From assembly GCA_963836045.1 (NCBI GenBank), contig CAWIIC010000004.1:77283-141282 (forward strand): a DNA stretch of 64,000 nucleotides, in the 5' to 3' direction. Origin of the DNA: an uncultured Pseudomonadota bacterium. GTDB taxonomy: Bacteria; Chloroflexota; UBA5177; JAJPKF01. Position numbers and translations under genes: made by a program. Numbering within the stretch: the first letter of the stretch is position 1; each line of letters begins with the position of its first letter. The notes beneath the pieces were generated by a model. The model saw only the letters and a program-made list of their open reading frames with translations. It ran no database searches and was not told the DNA's origin. This document shows positions 1-15,693 of this stretch, piece after piece.

Positions 1-1150
1 GAAACTGCTCGGATGCGAGCAACAGTCCCGCCCGAGTTATTCGTCGGGTCGTATCGAGAAGGTACTGTCGTCTCGTTTGGTACACGCCTAGGCGACCCGC
101 GTGGTATGACGCCAGCTCGGGGGTAAGCGCCAGCCTGCGAGCTGCCAGCGATGCCGTAGTCGATAAGTGATCCACCGCGACGAACGGAAGTATTCCGGCC
201 GCTTGGTCGTGCGGCTCTGAGACTCTGCCATCCGACAGAACGGTGTCGGCGGTGGCCAGCTTCTTCACCGTCCAGTGCCGTGGACCCTTGCCGCGTGTGC
301 AGATCGGGAGTCCTTCGGTGTCTGTTCCCAAAAGTTCATGGCTCAGCTCGAGGGCACGATGCAGGACGACGCAGACACTCGCAGCGTGGGCGTTACGGTG
401 GAGCGCATCCCAATCGATCTCGCCACGGAATTTCCCAACGACGTGATCGAGATCGCACAGGTTCTTCAGCCGGGCAAACCGATGCTTGCGCAAGTTAACC
501 GCGAGTAGCAGCATGGTGTCCTCGAGGCCTGGACATCTCACGTGCCGTCCCTCAACGTCGATAAGAGATGACTGCCGCCAGATCTTCAGCTCGTCCAGGC
601 TGGCCGATCCCCGCTCTGCGAGCATCCAGTGCAGCTCAACCGACCAGGAAACACCGCTGCCGTCTGCGCGGCGGAACGCCATGTCCCGGCCGGTCAGACG
701 CTGCAGCCTCTCGTCGTACTCGTCCACAGGACCATAGCCCAGCCCCATCAGACGCTCACGAGCCAGCTCGTACTCGTCCGCGTGCACCGCGATATCGATG
801 TCCCGACACAGACGTGCCCCCGCCGGGTAGCACCGCTCGGCCAGGGCCGGCCCCTTAAGAGCGAGACAGTCTATTCCCGACAGCGCATCCCACACCGTCC
901 CCAGCTCGCCCAGCGTCAGACGGTGCTGAATCACGTTGGCCGCGTGCAGCCGCCGCAACAGCTCGAGGACGTCCCCTCCGAGCACGTCCTCCACCCGTCC
1001 CGGCTCCTCGAGAAGCGTGGCGATCACCAGCGGCGTGACCTCGTGCCGGTCGGCCAGCAACAGCACGTCGAGCCAGTTAGTCTCGTCTATGCCGCCGCCA
1101 TCGCCGGCACACGCACGTAGCAGGACCTTCTCGGACGCCGTGATCGCCAT
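1..1150 (-). CDS. Nucleotidyltransferase family protein (uncharacterised NTP_transf_5 / PF14907-like); C-terminus cut by the window edge
   Basis: Hand translation of the minus strand from ATG at 1150-1148 (AGGGGA Shine-Dalgarno just upstream) gives MAITASEKVLLRACAG...CRDIDIAVHADEYELARERLMGLGY...VELHWML. The DxD plus HW signature and the length match this family. The frame stays open to position 1. It is missing from the ORF track because it has no stop inside the window. Confidence 0.72.
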   Translation of the reverse strand, partial: MAITASEKVLLRACAGDGGGIDETNWLDVLLLADRHEVTPLVIATLLEEPGRVEDVLGGDVLELLRRLHAANVIQHRLTLGELGTVWDALSGIDCLALKGPALAERCYPAGARLCRDIDIAVHADEYELARERLMGLGYGPVDEYDERLQRLTGRDMAFRRADGSGVSWSVELHWMLAERGSASLDELKIWRQSSLIDVEGRHVRCPGLEDTMLLLAVNLRKHRFARLKNLCDLDHVVGKFRGEIDWDALHRNAHAASVCVVLHRALELSHELLGTDTEGLPICTRGKGPRHWTVKKLATADTVLSDGRVSEPHDQAAGILPFVAVDHLSTTASLAARRLALTPELASYHAGRLGVYQTRRQYLLDTTRRITRAGLLLASEQF

Positions 1151-1218
1151 CGGTCCCCTAACGTAACCCCGGCGAATCGAACAATGCAATAAGCAGCTCG
1201 GCCGCGTCCTCTACCCGG

Positions 1219-1984
1219 TCAACCGACAGCGAGTACACCGGAGTCCGCTGCAATAGCCCGGCAATCGCCTCGGCTACAACCGGGTTCTCGTCTAGACGCG
1301 AACGCTTGCTCCAATAGATGCGGAAACGCCTGAGCCCCGGACATCCGCTCCAGCATCGTCGGCCTCCCCGTCTCCGCCAGCAGCACCACCGCCCGAGGCG
1401 CCACCGCCGCCGTCACCACCTCCACCGAGGCCTCCCACGGAGGACAATACAGCCGCTCGGCGATCGCCGTCTCCACCGTCGGGCCCGGCGTCCGGATCCG
1501 CCTTGAGCACGATCGCTCGCGGGAACCCGCGTACCCCCTCACCCGTCAGCAGAACCGCCTCGTCCGACATGTACCCCCACCCGCCATACCGCAGCAGCTC
1601 CAGCGTCAACGTGCTCTTCCCCGCCCCCGAAGGACCCGAGAGCAGCAGCGCCCCGTCATTCCGCGACAGCGCCGCCGCGTGCAGCGCGACAAACCCCTCG
1701 GCCGTGCCCAACGCCCGCTGAACGGCATGCCATTCCAGATAGGCGTACAGCCACTCCCACGAAGCGTCGACCCGCACCGATTCCTCGTCGAACCACAGCC
1801 TGAACCGCTCGCCGTCGGAGTCCACCACGTACCGGTGGGCCGCCGAGGCCTCCGCCCCGGCAAACGGCAGGAACGTCCGCCGAAACTGCCGCGCGATCCG
1901 CGACTCGCAGCACTCGAGCTCGAACTCGAACCCCGCCAGGCTGTACGACTCCGCCGCCGGACTCTCGATCACCAAGGCCGCCAC
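1219..1984 (-). pseudogene. HPr-kinase-related (HprK-like) P-loop kinase, frameshifted as assembled
   Basis: The N-terminal ORF 1292-1984 carries the Walker A motif LSGPSGAGKSTL, then turns into Gly-rich nonsense. The family-like C-terminus (AIAERLYCPPWEASVEV...AVVLLAETGRPTMLERMSGAQAFPHLLEQAF) continues in ORF 1219-1542. The frame switch lies near the GGGCCC run at 1481-1486. Confidence 0.7.
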
Positions 1985-1994
1985 TCCGCCAACC

Positions 1995-2255
1995 TCAAGC
2001 CGCCTCCACCAGTCCCAAATCGACGAACTGCTGGATCGCCTTGCTCACGTCGTCGTGAATCGCGTCCTCCGCCGTCGGAAAGTCCTGCGCCAGCTTCTTC
2101 TCGATGTCCACCGGGCTGTGCTCGCCGTCGCACAGCGCCCATATCCGAAGCGCCGTCGGGTTGAGGACGTGGCCCATCCCCGACGTCGGGTCGTACATCA
2201 CCCCCTCGCCCTCGATCTCCCAGATCTTGACGTCAGTCCGCCTGGTCAGTGTCAT
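1995..2255 (-). CDS. PqqD-family peptide chaperone (RiPP recognition element-like)
   Basis: 86 aa. WEIEGEGVMYDPTSGMGHVLNPTALRIWALCDGEHSPVDIEKKLAQDF...FVDLGLVE matches the PqqD/RRE winged-helix pattern. It sits immediately upstream of the HprK-like kinase. Confidence 0.8.
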   Translation of the reverse strand: MTLTRRTDVKIWEIEGEGVMYDPTSGMGHVLNPTALRIWALCDGEHSPVDIEKKLAQDFPTAEDAIHDDVSKAIQQFVDLGLVEAA

Positions 2256-2694
2256 CTACCCTCACCTCAGTCTGCTCCTGGGCCTTTGCCTGCTTGCGGA
2301 TATACCAGCCAAGCGCCGCCGCCCCAGCCCCGGCCGCCGGTATCCAGTCCTGATTGTCCACGTGCCGCGAGGCCTTCGCCGGAATCCCATGCTGCCCCGC
2401 CCCGCCACCGGTCTCCGGAAGCACCGACGGCGTGCTGGTGGTAGTGCTGGTCGTCGTATACGTCGTGCTGCTGCTGCTGCTGTAGCTCGAGTTGTAGTGG
2501 TTGGACGTCGACGGCGCCGGCGACCCTGCCTGCCCCGTCTTCGAAATCGCGAACGACGTGATCTTCGGACCCACGTACAGCCCGCTCAGCGCCACCCCGC
2601 TCCACTTGAGGAACTCGCCCCTGCTGGTCCGAGGATCAACCGTATCCCGGTCGTCCCCTTCCTGGTTCTCGGCAATGCTGTCACTAGTGCTCAT
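2233..2694 (-). CDS. Small Ser/Thr/Tyr-rich protein with a Tat-like N-terminus and an LPETG motif followed by a C-terminal hydrophobic segment
   Basis: 153 aa. N-terminus has TSRGEFLKWSGVALSGL. A central tract reads SPAPSTSNHYNSSYSSSSSTTYTTTSTTTSTPS. This is followed by VLPETGGG (checked on the DNA), IPAAGAGAAALGWYI and RKQAK. Its 3' end overlaps the PqqD start by 23 nt. The third-position GC bias fits coding sequence. Confidence 0.6.
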   Translation of the reverse strand: MSTSDSIAENQEGDDRDTVDPRTSRGEFLKWSGVALSGLYVGPKITSFAISKTGQAGSPAPSTSNHYNSSYSSSSSTTYTTTSTTTSTPSVLPETGGGAGQHGIPAKASRHVDNQDWIPAAGAGAAALGWYIRKQAKAQEQTEVRVDDTDQAD

Positions 2695-2735
2695 CTGTCT
2701 ACTGCTCCTTGTTCAATCGTCATGATCGCGAACGC

Positions 2736-3833
2736 CTACGAATCTTCAGCCATCACGCCGGCCGCAAAGTGCTCGGCGCCGGCCCCACGCCCCGGCCGAA
2801 GGAACTCAAACGTGTCCAGACCCCGTAAGGAGTCTCGTGCCCCACCGTTCTTCAGCGACTTATCCGCCGCCTCGAGCACCTTGATCACGCTGAGCCCCGA
2901 CCGTCCATCGCTCCGTGGAGTCGTCCCCTGATGGATGCACTGAATGAAGTGCAGCAGCTCCAGCTTCAGCGGCTCACCACTGGCCACCGCCGGGATGTTC
3001 ACCCCGCCATAGTGGTAGCTCAGCTGGAAGTCCGCGTAGTCACCCGACGACGTCGTCTTGATCACGCCCTTGTCGTAGATACGCAGCTTCTCCTCCGCCG
3101 ACACGTCGTTGTAGACCACCATCTTCTCGTCGCCGACCACCGTCAGCCGCCGCACCTTGCACGGCTCCAGCCAGCTCACGTGTATATGGCCCAAAATGCC
3201 CTGCGGGTACTTCAGCTCCAAGTACGCCACATCATGCGTGCCCGGATGGATACAGGCGTTTCCCCGCGCGCTGACGTGCGTCGGGTCCGCCTCCAGGATG
3301 TAGTTCATGATCGAGATGTCGTGCGGCGCCAGATCCCACAGCACGTTGACGTCACTGCGGTACTGACCCAGATTGAGCCGCGCCGCGTCCACGTAGAGCA
3401 CCCGCCCCACGTCACCTCGCTTGACGATATCCCGCAAGGCGATGACCGCCGGGTTGTACTCGAAGGTGTGTCCCACCATCAACCTGAGGCCCTTGTCATC
3501 GGCCAGCCGCACCAGCTCCCGAGCCTCGGCCGAGTTCAACGTCATCGGCTTCTCGATCAGCACGTGCTTGCCCGCCATCAGCGCCTCGCGCGCCATCGCG
3601 TGATGCGTCCGCACCGGCGTCGCCACCACCACCGCGTCGACGTCGCTCTCCAGAACCTCCCGGTACTCCTTCGTCAGCACCGCGTAGGGATACCGCGCCC
3701 GCAGCGCCTCCAGCCGCTCGTCCGAAAGATCCGCGATCGCCGTCAGCCGCGCCTCCGGGATCTCACTGAGATTGCGGATCAGGTGCGGACCCCAATAGCC
3801 TGCTCCAATCACGCCGAACCGTACTTCATTCAT
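2736..3833 (-). CDS. Gfo/Idh/MocA family NAD-dependent sugar oxidoreductase (WbpB-like UDP-sugar dehydrogenase class)
   Basis: 365 aa. N-terminal Rossmann motif VRFGVIGAGYWGPHLIRNL, followed by EKPM and the rest of the family-typical layout. Confidence 0.88.
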   Translation of the reverse strand: MNEVRFGVIGAGYWGPHLIRNLSEIPEARLTAIADLSDERLEALRARYPYAVLTKEYREVLESDVDAVVVATPVRTHHAMAREALMAGKHVLIEKPMTLNSAEARELVRLADDKGLRLMVGHTFEYNPAVIALRDIVKRGDVGRVLYVDAARLNLGQYRSDVNVLWDLAPHDISIMNYILEADPTHVSARGNACIHPGTHDVAYLELKYPQGILGHIHVSWLEPCKVRRLTVVGDEKMVVYNDVSAEEKLRIYDKGVIKTTSSGDYADFQLSYHYGGVNIPAVASGEPLKLELLHFIQCIHQGTTPRSDGRSGLSVIKVLEAADKSLKNGGARDSLRGLDTFEFLRPGRGAGAEHFAAGVMAEDS

Positions 3834-3867: not shown

Positions 3868-4521
3868 TTAACGATGAGTGATGAATGCCCACAAGAGCGC
3901 GGGCACAGTAGCTATAACGATTCCAAAGTCCAGCGGCAAGGACTGCCGCTCGATATACTCCAGATCCATGTCGATCATGGTCTCGAAGTCCACGACATCC
4001 CGCCCCTGCACCTGCCACAGCCCGGTGATCCCCGGCTTGACCTGCAGCCGGCCGCGATGCCTCGGCGTGTAATGCTCCACCTCGTACGCCAGTGGAGGCC
4101 TCGGCCCCACCAGGCTCATATCCCCCCGGATCACGTTGAGCAGCTGCGGCAGCTCGTCCAGCCCCAACCGCCGCAGCACCCCGCCGACCGGCGTGATCCG
4201 CGGATCGTGCCTGAGCTTGAACAGGTTCGCGTCCACCCCCGGCGCCGTCTCGCCCTTCAGGTACCGCTTGAAATACTCCCGGTGCGGCGCCGAGTCGACG
4301 TCCGCGTACATCGTGCGGAACTTGAACACCAGGAACGGCCGCTCGTCCTTGCCCAGACGCTCCTGCCGGAAGAACACCGGCCCCCGCGACGACCCCTTGA
4401 CCAGCAGCGCCGTCAGCCCAAACACCGGCGCCGACACCACCAGCAGCAACGCCCCGAGGATCACGTCAAACGGCCGCTTGTACCTCGGAACACGCCGCTC
4501 CGCCGCCGCGCCACGCGTCAC
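3868..4521 (-). CDS. Undecaprenyl-phosphate sugar phosphotransferase (bacterial sugar transferase, small PglC/WbaP C-terminal type)
   Basis: 217 aa. KRPFDVILGALLLVVSAPVF re-entrant helix, FFRQERLGKDERPFLVFKFRTM, DELPQLLNVIRGDMSLVGPRPP. These are the hallmark motifs of PF02397. Confidence 0.9.
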   Translation of the reverse strand: MTRGAAAERRVPRYKRPFDVILGALLLVVSAPVFGLTALLVKGSSRGPVFFRQERLGKDERPFLVFKFRTMYADVDSAPHREYFKRYLKGETAPGVDANLFKLRHDPRITPVGGVLRRLGLDELPQLLNVIRGDMSLVGPRPPLAYEVEHYTPRHRGRLQVKPGITGLWQVQGRDVVDFETMIDMDLEYIERQSLPLDFGIVIATVPALLWAFITHR

Positions 4522-4603: not shown

Positions 4604-5014
4604 CTAACCCTCAATCCGCTGCATGAACGTGTCGATAAGCAAGACCTGCTCCCTCAGCCCGTCACGCACCTGCCGCAGCAGCGACCGCGCCGGGTCCTCG
4701 AACGACCGGTCCTCCGCCGTCCGCTGCTCCTCCCGACGCTCATACCGTGGCGCCGGCCGTCGCTCCGCCGCCTGCGCCTCCACTACCTCCAGCGCCACCG
4801 CGTCCGCCGTGCTGACGATATCCTCCAGCAGCGTCGTCAAACGCTCCACGTGTGGCGCCGGCCCCGCCGTAACCCGGCTCAGCGCCTGCTCCACCTCCGT
4901 CTGCAAGAGGTAGCGCTCACCCACCCGCGTAAACTCCGCGCCCTGGATCACCACCTTATCAATCGACACTGGGAGTGGTCCTTCTATCGCTTGGACCGGC
5001 ACCGCGTACGTCAT
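4604..5014 (-). CDS. Hypothetical protein
   Basis: 136 aa ORF in operon register between the GGDEF and sugar transferase genes. The composition looks coding. I recognise no motif. Confidence 0.45.
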   Translation of the reverse strand: MTYAVPVQAIEGPLPVSIDKVVIQGAEFTRVGERYLLQTEVEQALSRVTAGPAPHVERLTTLLEDIVSTADAVALEVVEAQAAERRPAPRYERREEQRTAEDRSFEDPARSLLRQVRDGLREQVLLIDTFMQRIEG

Positions 5015-5049: not shown

Positions 5050-6195
5050 TCAATTGCTCAAGCTCAACGTGTCGGCCACGTGAGTTCGGTGCTTGCCCTG
5101 CGCCTTCGCCCCGTACAGCGCGATCTCCGCCGCCTGAATCAATCCCTGCGCGTCGTCCGCCCGCTCCGGATACGACGCCAGCCCGATGCTCAGCGACACG
5201 CTGACCCGCTCCGCCCCCACCATCACCGGATCCTCCAGCGCCCCGTGGATCCGGCGCGACAGAATCTCCGCGCCCTTACCCGTCGTCTGCGGCAGCATGA
5301 ACAGGAACTCGTCATCGCCCCGCCGCGCCAGCACATCGCTGGTCCGGCCCAGACCCAGCACCCGGCTGCACACCTCGCGCAGCACCTGATCCCCGGCATC
5401 CCGGCCGTACACCGCGTTCACCTGAGCGAAATCGTCCAGGTCGAAGCTCAGCAACGCCACCGAATAGCGGTAGCGCCGGGCCCGGTCGATCTCGATCCCC
5501 AGCAGCCGCTCGAATTGATCCAGACTGTACGCCGCCGTCAGCTCGTCGAACGTCGCCGGCTGCAGCGTCACCGCGTTCTTCTGCCGGATCGCCGCCGCCG
5601 CCACCCCCGCGCACGTCAAGACCAGCTCCACCCGCCGCCCCAACTCCGGGGCAAAGATCATATCCGCCCGATTCGCCGTCCGGTAATTCAGGTAGATCAG
5701 CCCCCCAACCTCCGCGTCCGTCCGGATCGGCAGCAGCGCGAACGACCGCACCCCCGCCTCACAGACCAACCGCCCCACATCCTCCATCCGGCTGGACGTG
5801 TCCGGAATAGCCAGCGGCAAACCCTGCTTGATCACCTGCGCCGCCAGCCGGTCGTGCTTCGGCACCACCCGCGTCAAATGCGCCGCCAGGTGCTCGTCAC
5901 TGGTCCAGCCCACCCACGATTTCTCACCCTTGAAAAACACCGTCGCGCTATCCGCCGCCGCCAGACGCGCCACCAGCTCCCCGGTCCGCTCCATCAAATC
6001 GCCCAGGTCGCGAATCTTCGTCAGCTCCAACCCCGACTGCAGCAGCTCGTCCTCCACCACGTGAGCCCGCTGCGTCGACGCCGCTCGTCCCGCGCCCGTC
6101 TCCCCGCCAGCCTCCACGTCCGGTGCCGCCGCTACCCCGTCCTCCATCGCCGGGCCGCCGGCGGACTTCTCCTGCAGCGGCAGCTCATCGGCCAC
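5050..6195 (-). CDS. GAF-GGDEF protein with a degenerate active site (GDDEF) and an intact RxxD I-site
   Basis: GAF-like N-terminal half. The GGDEF domain reads LLSFDLDDFAQVNAVYGRDAGDQVL...GRTSDVLARRGDDEFLFML. The codons were checked on the DNA. RTSD lies five residues upstream of GDDEF. Confidence 0.85.
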   Translation of the reverse strand: MADELPLQEKSAGGPAMEDGVAAAPDVEAGGETGAGRAASTQRAHVVEDELLQSGLELTKIRDLGDLMERTGELVARLAAADSATVFFKGEKSWVGWTSDEHLAAHLTRVVPKHDRLAAQVIKQGLPLAIPDTSSRMEDVGRLVCEAGVRSFALLPIRTDAEVGGLIYLNYRTANRADMIFAPELGRRVELVLTCAGVAAAAIRQKNAVTLQPATFDELTAAYSLDQFERLLGIEIDRARRYRYSVALLSFDLDDFAQVNAVYGRDAGDQVLREVCSRVLGLGRTSDVLARRGDDEFLFMLPQTTGKGAEILSRRIHGALEDPVMVGAERVSVSLSIGLASYPERADDAQGLIQAAEIALYGAKAQGKHRTHVADTLSLSN

Positions 6196-6713
6196 CGCCG
6201 GCCCGCCTGATCCGGGTGGCGCTCCTGTCCGGCCTCGACCTGATTCGCCGCGTCGGCAGCCAACCCCTGTCCGGCATCGCCCTGAATCGCCGCGTCGGCG
6301 GGCAATCCCTGATCGGCCACGCTCCGACGAGCCGCCTCCGTCCCATCCCCTGCCTCAGACGTCTCCGGCGAGACCGCCGCTTCCGCCGCGTGCTCCGTCG
6401 AGACCGGCCCCGATACCTCCGTCCCCGCCGGCGTCTCGGCTTCAGACGCGCCAACGAGCCGCTCCGAGTCTGCTCCGCCGGCCCCCGAAGCCTCCGGGGC
6501 CTCGGGCGACACCTCGCTCGGGGTCGGTTCCGCCGCCTCAAATGCCCGTTTCGCATCCGCCGACTCGTCACCATACGGCTCCGGCCCGGCGAATCCACTG
6601 GCGGCGACATCCGCGTCGATCGCCACCGCATCCACCGGCGGCACCGCTCCCGTATCGCCAGGCTCTGGCTCTACGGTCAGCCGCAGACGGCTGCGCCGGC
6701 GCTTCCTCGGCAA
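6132..6713 (-). CDS. Acidic Ala/Glu/Pro/Ser-rich low-complexity segment; probably the N-terminal extension of the GAF-GGDEF protein rather than a separate gene
   Basis: High third-position GC in this frame down to about 6205. After that the frame becomes Arg/Cys/Trp nonsense, while the GGDEF frame becomes sensible (GGPAVADELPLQ). The ORF starts 18 nt after an in-frame TGA that ends the upstream gene. Confidence 0.4.
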   Translation of the reverse strand: MPRKRRRSRLRLTVEPEPGDTGAVPPVDAVAIDADVAASGFAGPEPYGDESADAKRAFEAAEPTPSEVSPEAPEASGAGGADSERLVGASEAETPAGTEVSGPVSTEHAAEAAVSPETSEAGDGTEAARRSVADQGLPADAAIQGDAGQGLAADAANQVEAGQERHPDQAGRRWPMSCRCRRSPPAARRWRTG

Positions 6714-6731
6714 CGCCGGACGGTACCGACA

Positions 6732-7388
6732 TCAGCCCCGTGCCCGGGTCCGCCGCTTGGTCCGCGGTAGGCCCACCTCGGCCGACGCATCCAGCTCCTG
6801 CGTTCGCGATCCCTTGTCCGGTCCCGCCTGTATCTCGGGAGAACCCTCCGCCGGCTCGTCCGGCTCCGGGTCCTGCAGGCTCTGCGTCCACCGCAGCACT
6901 CGCCGGTCGTTCGGCGCGATGTCCGACGCAATAGTAAGCGCCCGGACAACCTCCGTACGCTGCGACGATACCCGTGCCTTCATCAGCCACAGCTCCGCCG
7001 AGTACGGCGCGAACTCCAGGGCCCGGTCAACCAGCGATCGCACCTGCTCGACCTGGCCCATGTTCACGCTGTGATCGACCAGCCTGCTGAGCGCCTGGAT
7101 GTGCCGGCGCTGCAGCCACAAGTCGTTCGACTCCAGCGATCCGGCCAGCCGGTCCAGCAGCGTGTCGATGCGCTCCGCCGGAGTCTCAATCGAAGCCACC
7201 CGCAGCCCGGTCAGAGCTCGCAGCTCCGAAACCGCCGCCTCTTCCTCGGCTGGAGGTAGCAGCACGGTCACTTCCTTGGGCGTGGCCGCCACCGCTATGG
7301 CTCGCAAACGCCGAGCGGCACTGTAGGGAATCAGTGTGACGATATCGGGTGCCAACACACCGATCGTGGTAGTCGTAGAAGACGTCAT
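6732..7388 (-). CDS. T2SSE_N (GspE N-terminal)-like domain protein with a TPR-like helical region
   Basis: LIPYSAARRLRAIAVAATPKEVTVLLPPAEEEAAVSELRALTGLRVASIETPAERIDTLLDRL resembles the GspE/PilB N-terminal domain. It is followed by TPR-like helices and a basic tail. Confidence 0.68.
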   Translation of the reverse strand: MTSSTTTTIGVLAPDIVTLIPYSAARRLRAIAVAATPKEVTVLLPPAEEEAAVSELRALTGLRVASIETPAERIDTLLDRLAGSLESNDLWLQRRHIQALSRLVDHSVNMGQVEQVRSLVDRALEFAPYSAELWLMKARVSSQRTEVVRALTIASDIAPNDRRVLRWTQSLQDPEPDEPAEGSPEIQAGPDKGSRTQELDASAEVGLPRTKRRTRARG

Positions 7389-7532: not shown

Positions 7533-9405
7533 TCAAAGTGCCGCGGCTTCGGTAAAACGATCCGGTGTCTCAGTTGTACCTGGTCGCTTCTCCCTCCGAT
7601 TGAGCTGCCAGGGATTGGAGAAGTAGAGCAGGTTGCCTACCATTCCGTAGTTATTCAGGTAGACCCGCAAAACGTCACGGGTCAGTTCGGCCGAGAGCTT
7701 GTCAAATGGCATTGCCGCGTCCAGCATCTTAAGAGAATACTGGTCCGACAGGGCGTCGTAGAGTCGCATCTGGTCGGACAGGGCCATATCTCCCCCATCG
7801 GGAACAGCGCGTGAGGCGGCCAGACGAGGGTCGATTCGCAGCAAGAAAGCTGACTGCGGGTCTGCGGCTGCCCTCTTCAACACGTTCAGGATCACAGTTC
7901 TGAACAGTGGATGTTCGTGCAAACGCTGACTCAGCTCTACATCCACATCACAGAGATAGCGGTCTGCAATGACGATTTCACCGCGCAGTAGCCGCCATCG
8001 GACCTGGAGAAGCCACAGAAGGTAGTCTGCAGCGCTCAGGCCGGCCCAGAGTTTCAGAGGCAAACCCCTCCGTCGTAACACCTTGCCCGTAGCCCGTGTC
8101 CACTTCCTTTGCGACCCGGCTTCCGCGTCGCGAGCGAACTAATCGGCTCAGGGCGTAGACCAGGGGAGTTGCTCCGAATCGAGCCCACCTGACCTCAGCC
8201 CGCAGCTCAGCTATGGAGAACGCGTCGGCAAGTGCGAGTGCCTGAGCCGTCTTCCCGCTTCCATCCATACCGCTCAATGCGATGAGTGCGGAGTTTTGCG
8301 GGTGGGCTCCGATTTGTCCCTTGAATCCACGGGCGAGAGCCAGAGCCGTGAGGAGCGGCTTTTCTGCAAGTGGAATCTGCTTGTCGGCGTAGAGCTTGTC
8401 GAAGAACAGGAGTTTGCTCATCGCAAATGGCAGCTCGTGGGGTAGCAGTGGTGGCTTGCTCGCCAGGTCCCGCCAGTACCTGCGCGTAACCCGTTGGTTC
8501 TGCACGTCCTGTAGTAGCCGGTCGTGGCGTTGCCTTGGCACGCTTACACTTTCGAACAACTGCTCCTCGAGGCGGGCCAAGGTAGCCAGGCCAACATTGA
8601 GGCCGTTGACCCAGCCTCTCTGGACCGCCACGAAGTAGATGTACTCCCAATCAACGCCTAGCTCGACGGCGTACCGAACCTTCATCAGGTCGTGGAGCGT
8701 CAGCTCCTTGTTCTCAAAGACGGCGTGCGCGATGTTGATGAGGAGTGAATCTTCGGTCCCCGGCACCCACGTCCATCGATCATCCTCGGAGATTCGGCGA
8801 CGTCTCCATATCTCGGGCTCAATCATAAAACCCTGACCCCAGCCGACTCGGGTGTGCAGGTGTATTGCCGATGGGCTATCACCGCCGGCAAAAAGCCGAA
8901 AAAGCCACTTCTGAGGCTCCTCGACGTTCCGCAGCTCGACGTATCCGAGATCCAACAGATCCTTCCGGGCGCCGTCACAATCCGCGGGTCGGACGAGGAT
9001 GTCAAAATTATCACTCGTGTACGGAAACGCCGGTTCGATACCGACCGACTTGAAGCAGATCCATTCGACTCCATGCGATCTCCACGCTTCCGCCACGGCG
9101 ACAAAATGTCGGTGCACTCGCTCGTAGAGCTCTGTCTCCTGTTGCAACGCTGTTTTGAACGATTCCGACTGCAAGAGGCTGCGCAACCAGCTATCCTGGC
9201 TATGAGTCCCATCCCGCTCCGACGTTGATTCGATCACTTGACCGAATGACAACAGCGGGAGCCTGTTCTCCAGCATCGAGCTGACAAATTCATCATCATG
9301 GGGTGGTCGCCCGCGACGGACAACAAGACTTCGCCGCAATGCCTGGAGTATTTCCCATTTATCGGTCAATCTATCGAACCTCGGGCCGTGAAATTGGCGG
9401 CGCAA
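7533..9405 (-). pseudogene. Fusion of an NTP_transf_5-like nucleotidyltransferase and a dTMP-kinase-like P-loop kinase, frameshifted as assembled
   Basis: ORF 7978-9405 has the nucleotidyltransferase part (FPYTSDNFDILVRPADCDGARKDLLDLGY...IHLHTRVGWG), then the P-loop LSGMDGSGKTAQALALADAF. The rest of the kinase (EIVIADRYLCDVDVEL...) continues in ORF 7533-8081 in a different frame. The switch lies between about 8040 and 8110. Confidence 0.68.
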
Positions 9406-9745: not shown

Positions 9746-11173
9746 GTGTTCAACATCGCGCTAACTATCGTCGCGCTTGTCTCGTCGGGTCTAGTACCGT
9801 TTGGCTTCAATGTCCTGGTGGGCAGGCGGTATGGGGGCCCGGCTCTCGGCGAGCTGAGCGTCGCATTAAGTCTGGCGCTCTTCCTCGGACAGATCCCGGG
9901 AACGATGAGCAGTGCGGCCACGAAGTATATCGCTGAGTCCCTGGGCGGCGAGCAAGGCGTCAGGGCCAGAAGCGTCTTTCAGTTCCTGCTGGTACTAAGC
10001 GCTGCTTTCTCAGTCCTGGTCGGCGCAGCTCTCGCGATTGCCGCTCCTATTGTGGCTGCCGCCTTGAAGATAACAACTGAGTATGTCTACCTGGCAGCTG
10101 CTCTGGTGCCCACCTACACGCTGTACCTGTACTTCAAGAGCGTTTACTACGGCGTGCAGCGCGTGCGACCGTACTTGACGAACGAGCTGGTTTCCGATGC
10201 GGCCTTCTTCGTGGCTCTCGGCGCTATCATCTTCCTCAATGCGACGCCCTGGCTTCTCCTGCCGTTCGTAATCAACAACGGCTTGTTTGCCCTGATTGCC
10301 CTCCGTTTCTTCCTCCCGGTACTTCACGGCTTCGATTGGGGCCGCCGCTGTGACCGAATGGCCGTCTTGAAGTATTGCGTAATAAACGGCAGCGGAACAG
10401 CAGCGAGTCTCGGGCGTTGGTCGCTTGGCATTGCCATCGCCGGTCTCTTTCTGTCGCATCAGTCCGTTGGCCTGTTCGCTGCCGCCCTGACGATCACGGC
10501 TCCTCTTCCGCTCCTACCTCGAGCCATTTCCCTGGTGACCTTTGCCACAATGGCAAGGCTGCACGGCGCCGGACAGCATGCGTCAGTGCAGTCGCTCCTC
10601 CAGCAGTCCACCGAGTGGCTCGTGTTCATACTGGGTCTGCCGTTTGGCCTGGCGATCATCAACGCATCGCTGATTTTGTCCATTGTTTTCCGGCCCGATT
10701 TTGCGGCAGCCGCGCTGGCAGCACAGCTAATCATGCTCGGCGCGTTTTTTACCGACATTTCCCGACCATCTATCGACGCGCTGTCGAGCACCGAGTACGT
10801 TCGAATCCCCACTCTGGCGAGCTTCGCCGGGCTCGCGGTTAGCCTGATCATGTGGTTCGGATTGATCCCGGCTTACGGCATCAACGCCGCCGGTCTGGGC
10901 TTCGCCATCGGTGCACTGGTGACTGGAGGCATTCCGGCGTACTACGCCTATAAGCGCATCGGGACGCATCCCTCAGTCTTTGTCAGACCCGTGGGCATGC
11001 TTTTGCTTCTGCTGATCCTGATGTCCGCTGCCGGTAAGTTTGCCCTACTAGCCTCGCTGATCTTTGTCGTTGGTATCTCGGCCTTGTACTTCCACTTGGT
11101 CCAAGGCGTCTTTCGTGCTTCCCGGCAGTTATACCTGAAGCGCACAACCGGGCTTAGCAACGGCTCCGCCTAG
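9746..11173 (+). CDS. Polysaccharide biosynthesis protein / oligosaccharide flippase (Wzx/MOP superfamily)
   Basis: 475 aa with about 12-14 hydrophobic segments throughout. It sits in a polysaccharide gene context. Confidence 0.78.
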   Translation: MFNIALTIVALVSSGLVPFGFNVLVGRRYGGPALGELSVALSLALFLGQIPGTMSSAATKYIAESLGGEQGVRARSVFQFLLVLSAAFSVLVGAALAIAAPIVAAALKITTEYVYLAAALVPTYTLYLYFKSVYYGVQRVRPYLTNELVSDAAFFVALGAIIFLNATPWLLLPFVINNGLFALIALRFFLPVLHGFDWGRRCDRMAVLKYCVINGSGTAASLGRWSLGIAIAGLFLSHQSVGLFAAALTITAPLPLLPRAISLVTFATMARLHGAGQHASVQSLLQQSTEWLVFILGLPFGLAIINASLILSIVFRPDFAAAALAAQLIMLGAFFTDISRPSIDALSSTEYVRIPTLASFAGLAVSLIMWFGLIPAYGINAAGLGFAIGALVTGGIPAYYAYKRIGTHPSVFVRPVGMLLLLLILMSAAGKFALLASLIFVVGISALYFHLVQGVFRASRQLYLKRTTGLSNGSA

Positions 11174-11175
11174 GC

Positions 11176-12360
11176 GTGGGCAGATTTCCCAAGGTCGCAT
11201 TGTCGTCGGTCGCCATACTCCTGGCCGCCGGCTTGGTAATCTTTCTGCTGGTTAGCCGACGGGAGGGCGAGAAGGTCATTCCCAAGCTGCCGGTTTCATA
11301 TACGGGAGTTAACTACTACGACCCAACGGACTACTTCACCAAATGTCCGGACTTCACCTGGCTCGAGGCGGCATGTTATGCAAACGAACAGCTCTCAATG
11401 TCTCCCAGCCACCAGCTCGCGTCCGATCTCGCATTCGTCCGGTCGACCCACATCGGTTCCTTCATGCGAGTGTGGGTGAGCCTCGACGAGCTAATGCGGT
11501 GGGATCCGACCACAGGGTACACGGGGTATAACCCGGCAGCCTTAGCCAACGTGGACTCAGCCTTAAGCCAGTTTGCATCTCAGCACATCAAGGTCGACCT
11601 CGTCCTTCTTGCTTACTCACAGGGTTCAGGGTGGCTGAAGCAGTTTCACCCCGAGGCTCTTGATGGTCAGCATCGCCAAATGCGGGCTAACTATCTACTC
11701 GCGGTGCGCGACTTCATCGAACATCTCGCGGCCAATCCAACTGATGCTTCTACAGTTGTCGTCATGGACTTACAGACCGAGCCCTACTATCAGCTTGAGC
11801 AATACTTCCATGACGCTTCGCGGTTGGGTACGTTCAAGTCGTGCGACAATGGATCCGGAACTGGGCGCAACGACTGCGTGGATCGTGACATCATTCATCC
11901 CTGGTTACTCGATTTGTACCGGACCGCGCGCTCGGCCTCGACGGCCTTCCGCTACACCTTCGCTGATACGGGAAGGCTGTTGACCACAGACCGGGTAGCC
12001 CAAAACTACTGGGTCTCGATGTACCCTGTAGACGTTTACGATATCCACATGTATAACGATGCCCCGTGGAACGACACGGCGCGGTGGGAGTCGTCGGCAA
12101 ACCTTGATAAACCTTGGTTCGCAGGCGAGGCGGGATGCGGGTCTGGTGACATTACATGTACGTACAATGGTCAACGCGCGCTACCGGTCGACTCTTGGTG
12201 GCTCGCCCATCTGAGAAGCTACCGAGCGCAAGCGGTCCTCATCGAAAGCCACGTTACCGTTTGGACCTACCCAAACGGTCCGACGAGTCAAACATTAACC
12301 CCAACTGGTCAAGCGGTGGCGTGCACGACCGACTCCACTCTTCCTCCATGTCGTACATAG
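11176..12360 (+). CDS. Membrane-anchored glycoside-hydrolase-like TIM-barrel protein (GH5-like, tentative)
   Basis: N-terminal TM anchor. Candidate acid/base motif VVVMDLQTEPYY and candidate nucleophile motif WFAGEAG, spaced as in clan GH-A enzymes. The start lies 3 nt after the flippase stop. Confidence 0.5.
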   Translation: MGRFPKVALSSVAILLAAGLVIFLLVSRREGEKVIPKLPVSYTGVNYYDPTDYFTKCPDFTWLEAACYANEQLSMSPSHQLASDLAFVRSTHIGSFMRVWVSLDELMRWDPTTGYTGYNPAALANVDSALSQFASQHIKVDLVLLAYSQGSGWLKQFHPEALDGQHRQMRANYLLAVRDFIEHLAANPTDASTVVVMDLQTEPYYQLEQYFHDASRLGTFKSCDNGSGTGRNDCVDRDIIHPWLLDLYRTARSASTAFRYTFADTGRLLTTDRVAQNYWVSMYPVDVYDIHMYNDAPWNDTARWESSANLDKPWFAGEAGCGSGDITCTYNGQRALPVDSWWLAHLRSYRAQAVLIESHVTVWTYPNGPTSQTLTPTGQAVACTTDSTLPPCRT

Positions 12361-12397
12361 ACAGTGTCGTTCCGGCATAGACCAGACTAGGAAGCAC

Positions 12398-13525
12398 ATG
12401 CAAAGAGTACTACTGACGTTTGGAACACGTCCTGAAGCCGTGAAAATGGCTCCGGTGGTCAGAGCCCTCAAAATATCCGAGCAGCTTGAACCTGTCGTGT
12501 GTCTTACAGGGCAGCATCGGGAAATGGTCGAGCAGATCTTACCCATCTTCGATGTTCGACCCGATTTCGACCTTGACGTCATGGCGCCGAATCAGAGTCC
12601 ATCTGATGTTGCGGCCGCCGTGTTTCAGCTGTTGCCGCGTACGCTTGCAGATGTCGAACCGGATCTTGTTCTCGTGCAGGGTGACACGACTACGGCAATG
12701 GCCGCCGCCGTCGCATCTCATTACGCAAAAATCCCGGTAGGACACGTAGAGGCCGGCCTCAGAACGGGTCAGCTGTACCAACCCTTTCCGGAAGAGGCTA
12801 ACCGAAAGGTGATCGGAGCGGTCACATCATTGCATTTCGCCCCTACCGACCGGGCTGCCGCCGCACTAAGAGCCGAATCCGTGCCCGCAGACCGCATATA
12901 CACCACGGGCAACACCGTCGTCGACGCCATACACTATCTGCTTGAGCGGTTGCCGCGGCTACCCGCGTCTCGAAATAGGCTCATCCTGGTCACGGCTCAT
13001 CGCCGGGAAAGCTTCGGGGAGCCCATGAAGCGTATTTGCCGTGCCATCAGAGACATCGTAGAGCAGCATCCCGACGCCGAAGTCTTGTATCCCGTCCATC
13101 CCAATCCCAACGTGCGGCAACCGGTGTACGACATCCTCGGCGGCGTCGATCGGGTGCGTCTGGTCGAGCCGCTAGACTACCTCGAGTTTGTACAGGTGCT
13201 CGATCAGTGTTACATCGCTCTTACTGACTCCGGCGGAGTGCAGGAAGAGGCCCCCATACTCGGAAAGCCGGTCCTAGTGATGCGAGATCACACTGAGCGT
13301 CAGGAGGCCATAGATGCCGGATGTGCCCGACTGGTCGGGACCAACCGGGATCTGATCGTCAGCCAGGCTGGCTTGCTTCTCGACGACGACGAGGAGTACG
13401 GCCGCATGAGCCGGCCGGTTAGCCCTTTTGGCGACGGCCACGCTGCCCCCCGAATTGTTGAGGCCATCGAGGACTTCCTGGCCCAGGACGAGGGTTCCTA
13501 CGCCCTCTCGAGCTCAGCGCTATAG
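12398..13525 (+). CDS. wecB: UDP-N-acetylglucosamine 2-epimerase (non-hydrolysing)
   Basis: 375 aa. LLTFGTRPEAVKMAPV, VQGDTTT, HVEAGLRT, TDSGGVQEEAP are classic WecB/MnaA motifs. Confidence 0.92.
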   Translation: MQRVLLTFGTRPEAVKMAPVVRALKISEQLEPVVCLTGQHREMVEQILPIFDVRPDFDLDVMAPNQSPSDVAAAVFQLLPRTLADVEPDLVLVQGDTTTAMAAAVASHYAKIPVGHVEAGLRTGQLYQPFPEEANRKVIGAVTSLHFAPTDRAAAALRAESVPADRIYTTGNTVVDAIHYLLERLPRLPASRNRLILVTAHRRESFGEPMKRICRAIRDIVEQHPDAEVLYPVHPNPNVRQPVYDILGGVDRVRLVEPLDYLEFVQVLDQCYIALTDSGGVQEEAPILGKPVLVMRDHTERQEAIDAGCARLVGTNRDLIVSQAGLLLDDDEEYGRMSRPVSPFGDGHAAPRIVEAIEDFLAQDEGSYALSSSAL

Positions 13526-14112: not shown

Positions 14113-15021
14113 ATGCGTATCCTTATGTACAACCGCGCCGGAGTACGTCGCCTCGGGATTATGCATGAGGATCACGTGGTCGATGTTGAAGACCTTATGC
14201 GCAGAGCCGAACTCGATCCATTTAGGGGATCTGCCCTAGATGTTATCCGAGCGGGGGCGGATACCCTAGAGCCGGTAGCAGAGCTGCTGGCTCAGCCGGA
14301 TAGCCGGAGCCGGATCGCATCGGCCAGCCGGCCGTTTCGAGAGATGGAGATAAAAGCGCCGCTAGATCCTCCCGTGGGGAACGTGATGGCCATCGGCCGA
14401 AACTACCCGGAACACGCAGCCGAGAGTGCAAGGGCACTGGGCCGAGACGTCGAACGGCCCACTGTGTTCACCAAAGCCCAGACATCGATAATCGGCCCAC
14501 ACGACGATGTGGTTGTCGACCCCAACGCGACGTCACAGCCTGACTGGGAAGCCGAGCTCGGCGTCGTGATTGGACGCCATGCCCTGAACGTACCTATCGA
14601 ATCGGGGCTTGACTATGTGTTCGGCTATACCGTGATCAATGACGTCTCCGCGCGAGACGTCCAGTCCGGTTGGGGAGGACAGTTCTTCAAGGGCAAGAGC
14701 CTCGACACCTTCTGTCCCATGGGTCCCTGGATAGTGACTAAGGACGAGATACCGGATCCTCAGGGTCTCGGGGTCAGGCTACGACTCAACGGAGAGATTA
14801 AACAAGAAGCCACTACCCGAGACATGATCTTTCCCGTGGCCGAGATCGTCTCCCAACTGTCTCTTGGCATGACGCTGCTGCCGGGCATGGTCATTGCCAC
14901 TGGGACTCCCAGCGGGGTGGGCTTCGCCCGAGAGCCCAAGGAGTTCTTGGAGCACGGGGACTTGATGGAGACCGAGATCGTCGGGGTGGGATTACTAAGT
15001 AACCGAATTGTCTATCGTTGA
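14113..15021 (+). CDS. Fumarylacetoacetate hydrolase family protein
   Basis: 302 aa. GRNYPEHAAE, DWEAELGVVIG, NDVSARD, ATGTPSGVG. GAAGGAG RBS upstream. Confidence 0.9.
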   Translation: MRILMYNRAGVRRLGIMHEDHVVDVEDLMRRAELDPFRGSALDVIRAGADTLEPVAELLAQPDSRSRIASASRPFREMEIKAPLDPPVGNVMAIGRNYPEHAAESARALGRDVERPTVFTKAQTSIIGPHDDVVVDPNATSQPDWEAELGVVIGRHALNVPIESGLDYVFGYTVINDVSARDVQSGWGGQFFKGKSLDTFCPMGPWIVTKDEIPDPQGLGVRLRLNGEIKQEATTRDMIFPVAEIVSQLSLGMTLLPGMVIATGTPSGVGFAREPKEFLEHGDLMETEIVGVGLLSNRIVYR

Positions 15022-15096
15022 GCGTCTATGCCTACTTCCATCCGGTATCTGTCCTCAATGCCGGCGGGTTCCGAGCCACCCACGGTCACGTGAGCC

Positions 15097-15693
15097 ATGA
15101 GCGCTGAGATGCTAAAGGCTCACGATCCAGTCGATTCCGATCGGCTTCTCCATGAGGACTACCAGTCGAGGTACGACATAATCCGCGATGCCGTGGCTCG
15201 CATTCTCTCGGTCATAGACGACCCACGTCGTCCCGACCTCGTCAAGACGCCGGAGAGAGTGGCCGAGATGTACCTCGAGCTAACGCAAACCAAGCCGTTC
15301 GACCTCAGCCTCTTTGACAATACGGACGGGTATGACGAGATGGTGGTCGAGGACGAGATTCCCTTTTTCTCTCTGTGCGAGCACCACATCGTTCCGTTCT
15401 TCGGCCTCGCCAAGGTGGCGTACATCCCGAAGAGCAAGATAGTTGGATTGTCAAAGCTGGCGAGGACCGTCGATCACTTCGCAGCAGGGCTCCAGACCCA
15501 GGAGCGCATCACCAATAGCGTGGCGGACTACCTCTGGACGCGGCTGGACTCTCAAGGAGTGGGAGTCAGACTGTCTGCTGAACATCTATGCGTTTCGATG
15601 CGGGGAGTGAAGAAACCGGGCGCCCGCACTATCACCACAGCCCTTCGGGGCATCTTCAAGCAGGCCCCAACCAGAGAGGAGTTCCTCCGCTAA
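15097..15693 (+). CDS. folE: GTP cyclohydrolase I
   Basis: 198 aa. FFSLCEHHIVPFFG, VGLSKLARTVDHFAAGLQTQERIT. Confidence 0.92.
   Translation: MSAEMLKAHDPVDSDRLLHEDYQSRYDIIRDAVARILSVIDDPRRPDLVKTPERVAEMYLELTQTKPFDLSLFDNTDGYDEMVVEDEIPFFSLCEHHIVPFFGLAKVAYIPKSKIVGLSKLARTVDHFAAGLQTQERITNSVADYLWTRLDSQGVGVRLSAEHLCVSMRGVKKPGARTITTALRGIFKQAPTREEFLR

Follow-up and report, generated by a model that had tools for sequence, protein, structure and literature searches.

Introduction

What does a set of peptide-tailoring enzymes modify when its genes are located within an operon for cell-surface polysaccharide? This question is raised by positions 1 to 2694 of a 64,000-nucleotide stretch of metagenomic DNA (contig CAWIIC010000004.1 of assembly GCA_963836045.1, positions 77,283 to 141,282; hereafter the window). 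Encoded there on the minus strand are a small disordered protein, a PqqD-family candidate recognition element for peptides that are made by the ribosome and modified after translation (RiPPs), an HPr-kinase-like P-loop kinase and a PF14907 nucleotidyltransferase. In the literature searched, enzymes of these types have been studied only as lasso-peptide tailoring enzymes. Lasso leaders are recognized by B1, a RiPP recognition element (RRE), through a YxxPxL motif at positions -17 to -12 (PMC10368454, PMC6784204). In the bsf cluster of Bradymonas sediminis the discrete RRE BsfB1 strongly boosts BsfK phosphorylation of an internal core serine, Ser3; BsfN, a nucleotidyltransferase, is encoded there as well (PMC10368454). 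The phosphoserine of pseudomycoidin receives one or two hexoses from a PF14907 nucleotidyltransferase (PMC8498205).

The triad of PqqD-like protein, kinase and nucleotidyltransferase is also catalogued in NCBIfam as the HPr-rel-A system, for which no paper was found in the literature searched. This agrees with an earlier annotation made from the letters alone (the original prediction), which described the triad as catalogued with no assigned substrate and proposed that it acts here on the adjoining hydroxyl-rich protein. In following up that proposal we describe what is new at this locus: an RRE, kinase and nucleotidyltransferase module that lacks RiPP class-defining machinery, resides in a polysaccharide operon and is accompanied by a candidate substrate family. 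Among the products of the locus, only the small protein is a candidate peptide partner, and it is plausibly the substrate delivered by the RRE. A mechanism in which the longer version of this system adds phosphate-linked groups to the small protein is, taken as a whole, possible but somewhat short of probable.

Results

A recurring pair of small protein and PqqD genes

The cassette consists of four genes.

Positions 1 to 1150, minus strand: PF14907 (NTP_transf_5) nucleotidyltransferase, assigned by PF14907 score and orthologue identity.
Positions 1158 to 1984, minus strand: HPr-kinase-like (ScmC / HprK_rel_A-related) P-loop kinase, disrupted, delimited by three-frame translation and DNA alignment.
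Positions 1995 to 2255, minus strand: PqqD-family RRE (peptide-binding chaperone) of 86 aa, assigned by PF05402, TIGR04353, an AlphaFold2 (AF2) model and Foldseek.
Positions 2233 to 2694, minus strand: disordered small protein of 153 aa, candidate substrate, defined by its open reading frame (ORF), family alignment and AF2.

All four of the tightly packed minus-strand genes in the original prediction are present, and the predicted overlap, in which the small-protein and PqqD ORFs share 23 nt, is confirmed. The locus is syntenic in nine related metagenomic loci (designated by L numbers below), and the small gene is directly upstream of the PqqD gene in 10 of the 10 loci recovered, with 45-100% identity of the small protein. 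The significant hidden Markov model (HMM) matches and the recurrence of this arrangement in nine other loci establish the cassette as more than a chance grouping.

These loci are of two types. In long-form loci (the window, L002, L003 and L007-L010) the PqqD, kinase and PF14907 genes are adjacent and co-directional, the remaining polysaccharide genes are present and the 23-nt overlap is kept in every case. Short-form loci (L004 and L006) keep genes for a GGDEF protein, a small uncharacterised protein, a Bac_transf protein, an oxidoreductase, the small protein and PqqD, with the latter followed by a flippase-like membrane protein or rnc. Because the short forms, which make up about half of the family, keep only the small protein and PqqD from the cassette, the conserved unit is the protein-PqqD pair and not the triad; comparison of the loci suggests that the kinase and nucleotidyltransferase are an addition in one branch. 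The original prediction had asked whether a short ORF with a C-terminal anchor recurs upstream of such triads. The small ORF is upstream of PqqD at every recovered locus, and the C-terminal hydrophobic segment is confined to the long forms.

The PqqD protein resembles a lasso B1 protein

As predicted from its sequence, the PqqD protein belongs to PF05402 (48.3 bits, cut-off 23.4). It also scores 35.0 bits with TIGR04353, the "HPr-rel-A system PqqD family peptide chaperone" (cut-off 35), a model that gives its orthologues 31.7-45.7 bits in long-form and 21.5-31.9 bits in short-form loci. The AF2 model (predicted local distance difference test score, pLDDT, 90.8) has the three-stranded sheet and three helices that, together with PF05402 membership, characterize an RRE. 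The top Foldseek match of this model is TbiB1 with leader peptide (5v1v, 5v1u; template modeling (TM) score 0.85), TfuB1 crystallised with its leader peptide (6jx3) is matched at a TM score of 0.81, and other RREs rank after these. As modeled, the PqqD protein is therefore a lasso-B1-type RRE in structure. A homologue search with the PqqD protein recovered only four proteins.

PqqD domains and ScmC-family kinases also occur as natural fusions, as observed in the Pfam columns of proteins P0007 and P0019 and at three other loci. These single-chain fusions are located at L013 8001-9230, L018 4530-5681 and L021 4407-5573. At L013 the set is duplicated, with two stand-alone PqqD genes, one PqqD-kinase fusion and two PF14907 genes.

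The small protein has an invariant leader-like block

The small-protein family is tiny. Among 5.8 billion proteins, a word-indexed search recovered 13 relatives; a full HMMER profile search of 1.84 billion representatives gave 11 matches (10 of them at E <= 1e-10), and an alignment scan of one genome per GTDB species gave 3 loci. The window protein is disordered in its AF2 model (pLDDT 49.6), with a helix predicted at residues 126-146, and contains the following features.

Positions 2512 to 2625, minus strand: invariant N-terminal block, residues 24-61, with 22 of 26 invariant family columns present here.
Positions 2560 to 2577, minus strand: Y40-V-G-P43-K-I45, a YxxPx[IV] motif corresponding to the YxxPxL of lasso leaders.
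Positions 2521 to 2523, minus strand: Ser58, invariant in the family alignment, the predicted phosphorylation site.
Positions 2422 to 2520, minus strand: hypervariable Ser/Thr/Tyr-rich linker, defined by composition and alignment.
Positions 2404 to 2421, minus strand: LPETGG, representing an invariant [LFY]PxTGG (LPXTG-like) motif in which P93, T95, G96 and G97 are invariant.
Positions 2299 to 2346, minus strand: hydrophobic segment W117-I132, found only in long forms and followed by RKQAK and an acidic tail.

An acidic, variable N-terminus precedes the block, which is almost invariant and reads S-R-G-E-F-L-K-W-x-x-V-A-L-S-G-L-Y-V-G-P-K-I-T-S-F-A ... G-x-A-G-S-P. Its parts are SRGEFLKW, which is similar to a twin-arginine translocation (Tat) signal, a weakly hydrophobic stretch, YVGPKI, SFA and GS-P. 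The sequence Y-[VA]-G-P-K-[IV] is found in all 19 of 19 family members, once in each and at the same position in the block, and a Y..P.[LIV] motif appears anywhere in 3% of shuffles of the window protein. Together with the modeled B1 fold, this YxxPx[IV] motif within the invariant block gives the strongest new support for reading of the small protein by the RRE. On the basis of this motif and the modeled B1 fold, binding of the small-protein leader by the RRE is moderately likely. Ser58 follows Ile45 by 13 residues, and a lasso register would put the invariant Gly57-Ser58 at core +1/+2. The sequence G-Q-A-G-S fits the -3/-1 rule and may, if cut between its Ala and second Gly, be a signal-peptidase site at a leader/core boundary.

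Downstream of the block the family diverges. The window linker (residues 58-92) is 74% Ser/Thr/Tyr, linker length and composition are hypervariable in the family, and even relative to L002 there are two in-frame 6-nt repeat indels (AGC and ACC repeats; window 2452 and 2482). After PxTGG, long forms (130-170 aa) have a spacer, then the hydrophobic segment and basic residues, and lastly an acidic tail. Short forms, of 90-119 aa, have no hydrophobic segment and mostly end in a short basic tail. A near-invariant N-terminal block, a hypervariable linker and an invariant PxTGG thus make up a leader/core pattern. Considered as a sortase substrate, the long form has the motif, the segment and RKQAK, with atypical spacing and an atypical N-terminal signal, and the segment is not present in short forms. 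Export and anchoring of the small protein are possible but somewhat short of probable. L004, a short-form locus whose small protein is without the anchor segment, has a sortase gene (14432-15154) some 4 kb downstream of the small-protein gene.

Two other peptide candidates were rejected. A hidden small ORF as the true precursor is ruled out by gaps of no more than 15 nt from the small protein to the nucleotidyltransferase, and a hidden lasso precursor by the lack of both a B2 or C gene and an acidic residue at core 7-9.

The kinase and the nucleotidyltransferase

The kinase gene begins with GTG at 1984, ends at about 1158 and has an interrupted frame. Of the coordinates first proposed (1219-1984, with one break near 1480), the start and the break were correct, and the end and a second insertion had been missed. 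Three-frame translation and DNA alignment with the intact kinases of L002 (259 aa, 91% aa identity) and L003 (270 aa, 71%) place +1 insertions near 1483 and 1291, and because of these extra bases the true gene is taken as 1158-1984.

Positions 1481 to 1485, minus strand: kinase frameshift 1, an extra base, GCCGGGCCCGAC in the window vs GCCGAG-CCGGC in L002.
Positions 1289 to 1293, minus strand: kinase frameshift 2, TCTAGACGAG in the window vs TCTAG-GGAG.

When repaired, the kinase is 276 aa long and aligns to 58-278 of the 280 positions of TIGR04352 (HprK_rel_A). This is its best model, as anticipated for an HprK-like kinase, with a score well under the family cut-off (see below). His102, the P-loop G117-T125 and Asp141 are all encoded upstream of frameshift 1, and H102, G117-T125 and D141-E142 are invariant among relatives (alignment A1). 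These residues are equivalent to BsfK H148, G163, K169, S170 and D186/D187 (PMC10368454). The His, GxxGxGKS P-loop and Asp pair of PadeK/BsfK-type peptide kinases are thus all retained in an ORF that is itself not intact. By analogy with those enzymes the long-form kinase may phosphorylate the small protein, a step that we propose tentatively.

A Protein Data Bank (PDB) sequence search with the kinase gave no significant match. Plasmids searched by tblastn gave no match to the L002 kinase, and canonical kinases used as queries found mostly lasso or fusion contexts. A metagenome scan with the kinase alignment was discarded; it collapsed to a P-loop pattern and two loci, of which L015 is an ABC transporter and a false positive.

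The nucleotidyltransferase ORF comprises 383 codons, with its 3' end past the start of the window, and is 96% identical to the L002 orthologue of 413 aa, the length of the orthologues. The predicted family is upheld by a PF14907 score of 142.9 bits (cut-off 31.2), and the KG...DxD active-site motif is kept as K99-G and D117-I-D119. A PDB sequence search with this protein also gave no significant match. That the nucleotidyltransferase adds a further group to the phosphate, as suggested by analogy with pseudomycoidin, is a rather doubtful step.

The surrounding polysaccharide locus

Upstream of the cassette, the minus strand encodes further proteins.

Positions 2736 to 3833, minus strand: GFO/IDH/MocA oxidoreductase, UDP-GlcNAc 3-dehydrogenase-like, assigned by family matches.
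Positions 3868 to 4521, minus strand: small Bac_transf polyprenyl-phosphate phosphoglycosyl transferase (PF02397, 205 bits).
Positions 4604 to 5014, minus strand: conserved protein of 136 aa with no family assignment, defined by Pfam/NCBIfam scan and related loci.
Positions 5050 to 7388, minus strand: GAF-GGDEF diguanylate cyclase, its gene split in the window, by comparison with L002.
Positions 7533 to 9405, minus strand: second PF14907 nucleotidyltransferase, a fusion with a dTMP-kinase-like P-loop domain, split, by comparison with L002.

The order along the minus strand is GAF-GGDEF, the 136-aa protein, Bac_transf, the oxidoreductase and then the four cassette genes. Only short gaps separate the genes and this strand lacks a terminator-like site from 7400 to 1, which together indicate one operon. 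The polyprenyl-phosphate sugar transferase and the oxidoreductase that had been recognized in this operon are both present; the top NCBIfam match of the latter is UDP-GlcNAc 3-dehydrogenase, under its cut-off, and its identity across all related loci is 71-77%. Orthologous loci further encode a DegT aminotransferase, a Wzz/BY-kinase-like protein, a Wzy_C protein and GT1/GT4 glycosyltransferases, with a MOP/MATE-like flippase divergently transcribed. The cassette is consequently located within a Wzx/Wzy-type cell-surface polysaccharide locus. As had been noted for its immediate vicinity, RiPP maturation genes are missing: neither the first 12 kb of the window nor the orthologous loci downstream (18-20 kb for B2 and C) contain a gene of the lasso B2 protease, lasso cyclase, radical-SAM or YcaO type.

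Several other features of this region were observed. The 136-aa protein between the GGDEF gene and Bac_transf is kept in every related locus, both long-form and short-form. The GAF-GGDEF gene heads the operon; its L002 orthologue encodes 762 aa, some relatives have an MshEN domain and the window copy has several indels at 6134-6764. The PF14907-P-loop fusion is 580 aa and intact in L002, has a +1 insertion near 8072 in the window, and is kept in all long-form and no short-form loci. A phosphonate survey likewise describes PF14907 adjoining thymidylate kinase (PMC8942020). On the plus strand, divergent from the operon, window 9746-13525 encodes a MOP/MATE-like flippase (475 aa), an uncharacterised protein of 394 aa and a UDP-GlcNAc 2-epimerase, and these genes are probably part of the polysaccharide locus as well. 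The first 8 kb, which hold the polysaccharide operon, have a GC content of 63-68%, and the other 56 kb have 57-62%. The taxonomic labels of related metagenome-assembled genomes are at odds, with one Chloroflexota and two proteobacteria.

A proposed mechanism

We propose that the small protein is a disordered "core peptide" in which the invariant residues 24-56, including YVGPKI, would act as leader. The B1-type RRE from the overlapping PqqD gene would bind this leader in the cytoplasm and, in long-form loci, present the peptide to the HPr-kinase-like enzyme for phosphorylation of Ser or Thr. The best guess for the target is invariant Ser58, with linker hydroxyls also possible. The PF14907 enzyme would then place a sugar or nucleotide on the phosphate, as in pseudomycoidin. 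The N-terminal block may double as an export signal (Tat-like, with cleavage within GQAGS), and LPxTGG plus the hydrophobic tail may be a sortase-like signal. An export-like block combined with a sortase-like tail implies that a modified Ser/Thr/Pro stalk of 25-50 residues would reach the cell surface, where it may serve to carry the glycan made by the locus.

A broader version of this proposal would see a lasso-derived, RRE-guided module making a "proteoglycan core". Ser-O-phosphate-sugar would be formed in the cytoplasm while PqqD holds the leader, export and LPxTGG anchoring would follow, and the product would be the carrier or primer of the Wzx/Wzy pathway; orphan HPr-rel-A systems would by extension modify small (Tat-)exported proteins before export. 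We regard this broader version as quite improbable.

Evidence against the proposal and alternative explanations

A number of observations weigh against the proposed mechanism. Neither a ScmC-type kinase nor PF14907 is encoded within 10 kb in the short-form loci L004 and L006, so that the RRE partner is not always a kinase and modification by kinase and nucleotidyltransferase is not the whole story. The idea that the triad acts on the adjoining protein has thus gained a constant PqqD neighbour, a leader-like motif and a B1 fold, and has to contend with short forms that are without both enzymes. The description of the substrate as hydroxyl-rich is weakened, as Ser/Thr/Tyr richness is not conserved: linkers are Pro-rich in L007 and L010, where the kinase is present, and in all short forms. 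The RRE analogy is itself affected by the finding that Ala replacement of the Tyr, Pro and Leu in BsfA did not abolish phosphorylation. The kinase misses the TIGR04352 cut-off of 200 bits (repaired window kinase 72.8, orthologues 46.7-85.0; for comparison, 318 and 245 bits are reached by true members, from Vibrio and Sphingomonas), is disrupted as sequenced in this genome, and evolves faster and is less conserved than any other gene of the locus (32-37% aa identity vs 71-77% for the oxidoreductase). ScmC-type kinases are also found in glycan loci with no adjoining PqqD (L025 and L023), and for this reason a non-peptide kinase substrate is possible. With regard to export, no sortase is encoded in the window, and the Tat-like block has F-L-K and a hydrophobic stretch with R-G in place of R-R in 19 of 19 members. 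Replacement of the second Arg of a Tat signal by Gly normally blocks Tat export. All of the loci come from one clade, so their synteny may partly reflect inheritance, and the phospho-linked sugar or nucleotide chemistry is proposed by analogy with paeninodin, pseudomycoidin and BsfK.

Some of these points are shared with a different explanation, in which the small protein is an exported, sortase-anchored, mucin-like wall protein that is O-glycosylated outside the membrane, for example by a Wzy_C-family enzyme. The kinase and nucleotidyltransferase would then act on a sugar or lipid-linked glycan, and PqqD would be a holdase or serve another peptide. This is consistent with the LPETGG, hydrophobic segment and RKQAK tail, with the Wzy_C, GT1/GT4, Wzz/BY-kinase-like, DegT and MOP-type flippase genes of orthologous loci, with the recurrence of ScmC-type kinases in glycan loci (at times without PqqD), with the absence of kinase and nucleotidyltransferase from short-form loci, and with the fusion of a second PF14907 enzyme to a nucleotide-kinase-like domain. 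However, an ordinary signal peptide does not stay invariant across 38 residues beside a hypervariable mature part, and here a lasso-type YxxPx[IV] is located inside that invariant block. Furthermore, the sole known role of a B1-type RRE is leader binding, the 23-nt overlap is conserved, PxTGG is invariant even in short forms that have no membrane segment, and in both enzyme families those members that have been characterised act on peptides. We consider this wall-protein explanation fairly unlikely. PqqD could alternatively be a proofreading or hold-back chaperone for a Tat-like signal, comparable to TorD/DmsD, with cytoplasmic retention until modification being the general logic of HPr-rel-A systems. 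SRGEFLKW plus the weakly hydrophobic stretch does resemble S/T-R-R-x-F-L-K, and a twin-arginine protein is encoded upstream of the Sphingomonas mucosissima, S. parapaucimobilis and Vibrio alfacsensis cassettes. This role is nevertheless very unlikely. Gly occupies the second Arg position throughout the family, the proteobacterial examples amount to just two that are independent, the cassettes at L012, L013 and L021 have no such upstream protein, the Vibrio gap holds an 84-aa ORF that could not be recognised as PqqD, and no link between RREs and Tat was found in the literature searched.

Leader-guided modification could also be a capacity of the family that this particular genome has lost. The cassette would then be a decaying remnant in which the kinase, the second PF14907 fusion and GGDEF are pseudogenes and no modification takes place, an explanation that we find nearly as credible as not. 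L002 is an intact locus whose DNA is 94% identical over 11.3 kb. Relative to it, the window kinase has the two +1 insertions, the PF14907-P-loop gene has one (near 8072) and the GGDEF linker is scrambled. The insertions are outside long homopolymers, and sampled housekeeping genes elsewhere in the window (DAHP synthase, prephenate dehydrogenase, UDP-GlcNAc 2-epimerase, FAA hydrolase and YchF) are full length. Against decay, the genes for the small protein, PqqD and nucleotidyltransferase have remained intact, their products being 86-99% identical to the orthologues. Related European Nucleotide Archive (ENA) contigs are named in the manner typical of metagenome assemblies from long reads, and one of them, L004, has many frame breaks. 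In addition, an independent Logan contig (L001, run ERR11594399) is the same as window 1494-3371 with one mismatch and ends 11 nt short of kinase indel 1, as expected where reads disagree; this hints at read heterogeneity at that point. On balance we lean slightly toward assembly error over real insertions in the kinase.

Relationship to known systems

The closest comparison is with the B1, K and N module of lasso clusters (paeninodin, pseudomycoidin and bsf), in which the same three protein types are encoded side by side. Shared features are an RRE with a B1 fold, a kinase that keeps its catalytic residues and a candidate substrate with YxxPx[IV] at a leader-like place. In contrast to lasso modules, there is no B2 protease, lasso cyclase or ABC exporter, and the cassette genes are embedded in a polysaccharide operon. 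The candidate substrate also departs from lasso precursors in having Gln or His and not Thr at -2, no Asp or Glu at core 7-9 (Gly at +1 is present) and, in place of a lasso core, a low-complexity "core" of 40-100 residues with LPxTGG. With neither the B2 leader peptidase nor the C cyclase, the locus is not a lasso cluster.

NCBIfam HPr-rel-A systems (TIGR04352, TIGR04353 and nucleotidyltransferase) have the same order of PqqD, kinase and PF14907. HprK_rel_A is the best kinase model and PqqD_rel_X is at or near cut-off, but the kinases at 47-85 bits are far from the cut-off of 200. As in proteobacterial HPr-rel-A cassettes, an uncharacterised exported-type protein is encoded just upstream, although the sequences are unrelated and the proteobacterial cassettes are not within a polysaccharide operon (two adjoin glmU/glmS or Poly_export genes). 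Proteins with classical twin-arginine signals are encoded just upstream of HprK_rel_A cassettes in S. mucosissima, the S. parapaucimobilis plasmid and the V. alfacsensis plasmid (L011 7336-7737, L016 6218-6703 and L017 5875-6687).

The ScmC/ScmD pair of SynChlorMet systems (PF27840; TIGR04248/TIGR04249) likewise combines a PqqD-like protein with an HprK-like P-loop protein. Orthologous kinases have a precomputed Pfam match to PF27840, and ScmD is the first or second NCBIfam match of several of the PqqD proteins. The scores of 16-45 bits are nevertheless below cut-offs of 100-125, and the radical-SAM/SPASM maturases of those systems are missing here. Finally, PEP-CTERM proteins belong to exopolysaccharide loci, and the long forms resemble LPXTG/PEP-CTERM proteins in having a C-terminal motif, hydrophobic helix and basic residues, a low-complexity Ser/Thr-rich stalk and a gene inside an exopolysaccharide-type locus. 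Unlike LPXTG substrates, they have a 19-residue spacer and a 21-residue acidic tail, and the motif is invariant even in short forms that have no helix.

Discussion

For a cassette that has been catalogued with no assigned substrate, this locus supplies a concrete candidate substrate and a predicted modification site, Ser58. If the proposed mechanism is false, then what is left is an ordinary cluster for exopolysaccharide that includes a stalk protein of LPXTG type. If it is true, then RRE-dependent, RiPP-type chemistry would be carried out on a cell-surface protein from within a polysaccharide operon. This would link RiPP biosynthesis with cell-envelope glycoconjugates and would provide a first handle on the orphan HPr-rel-A systems.

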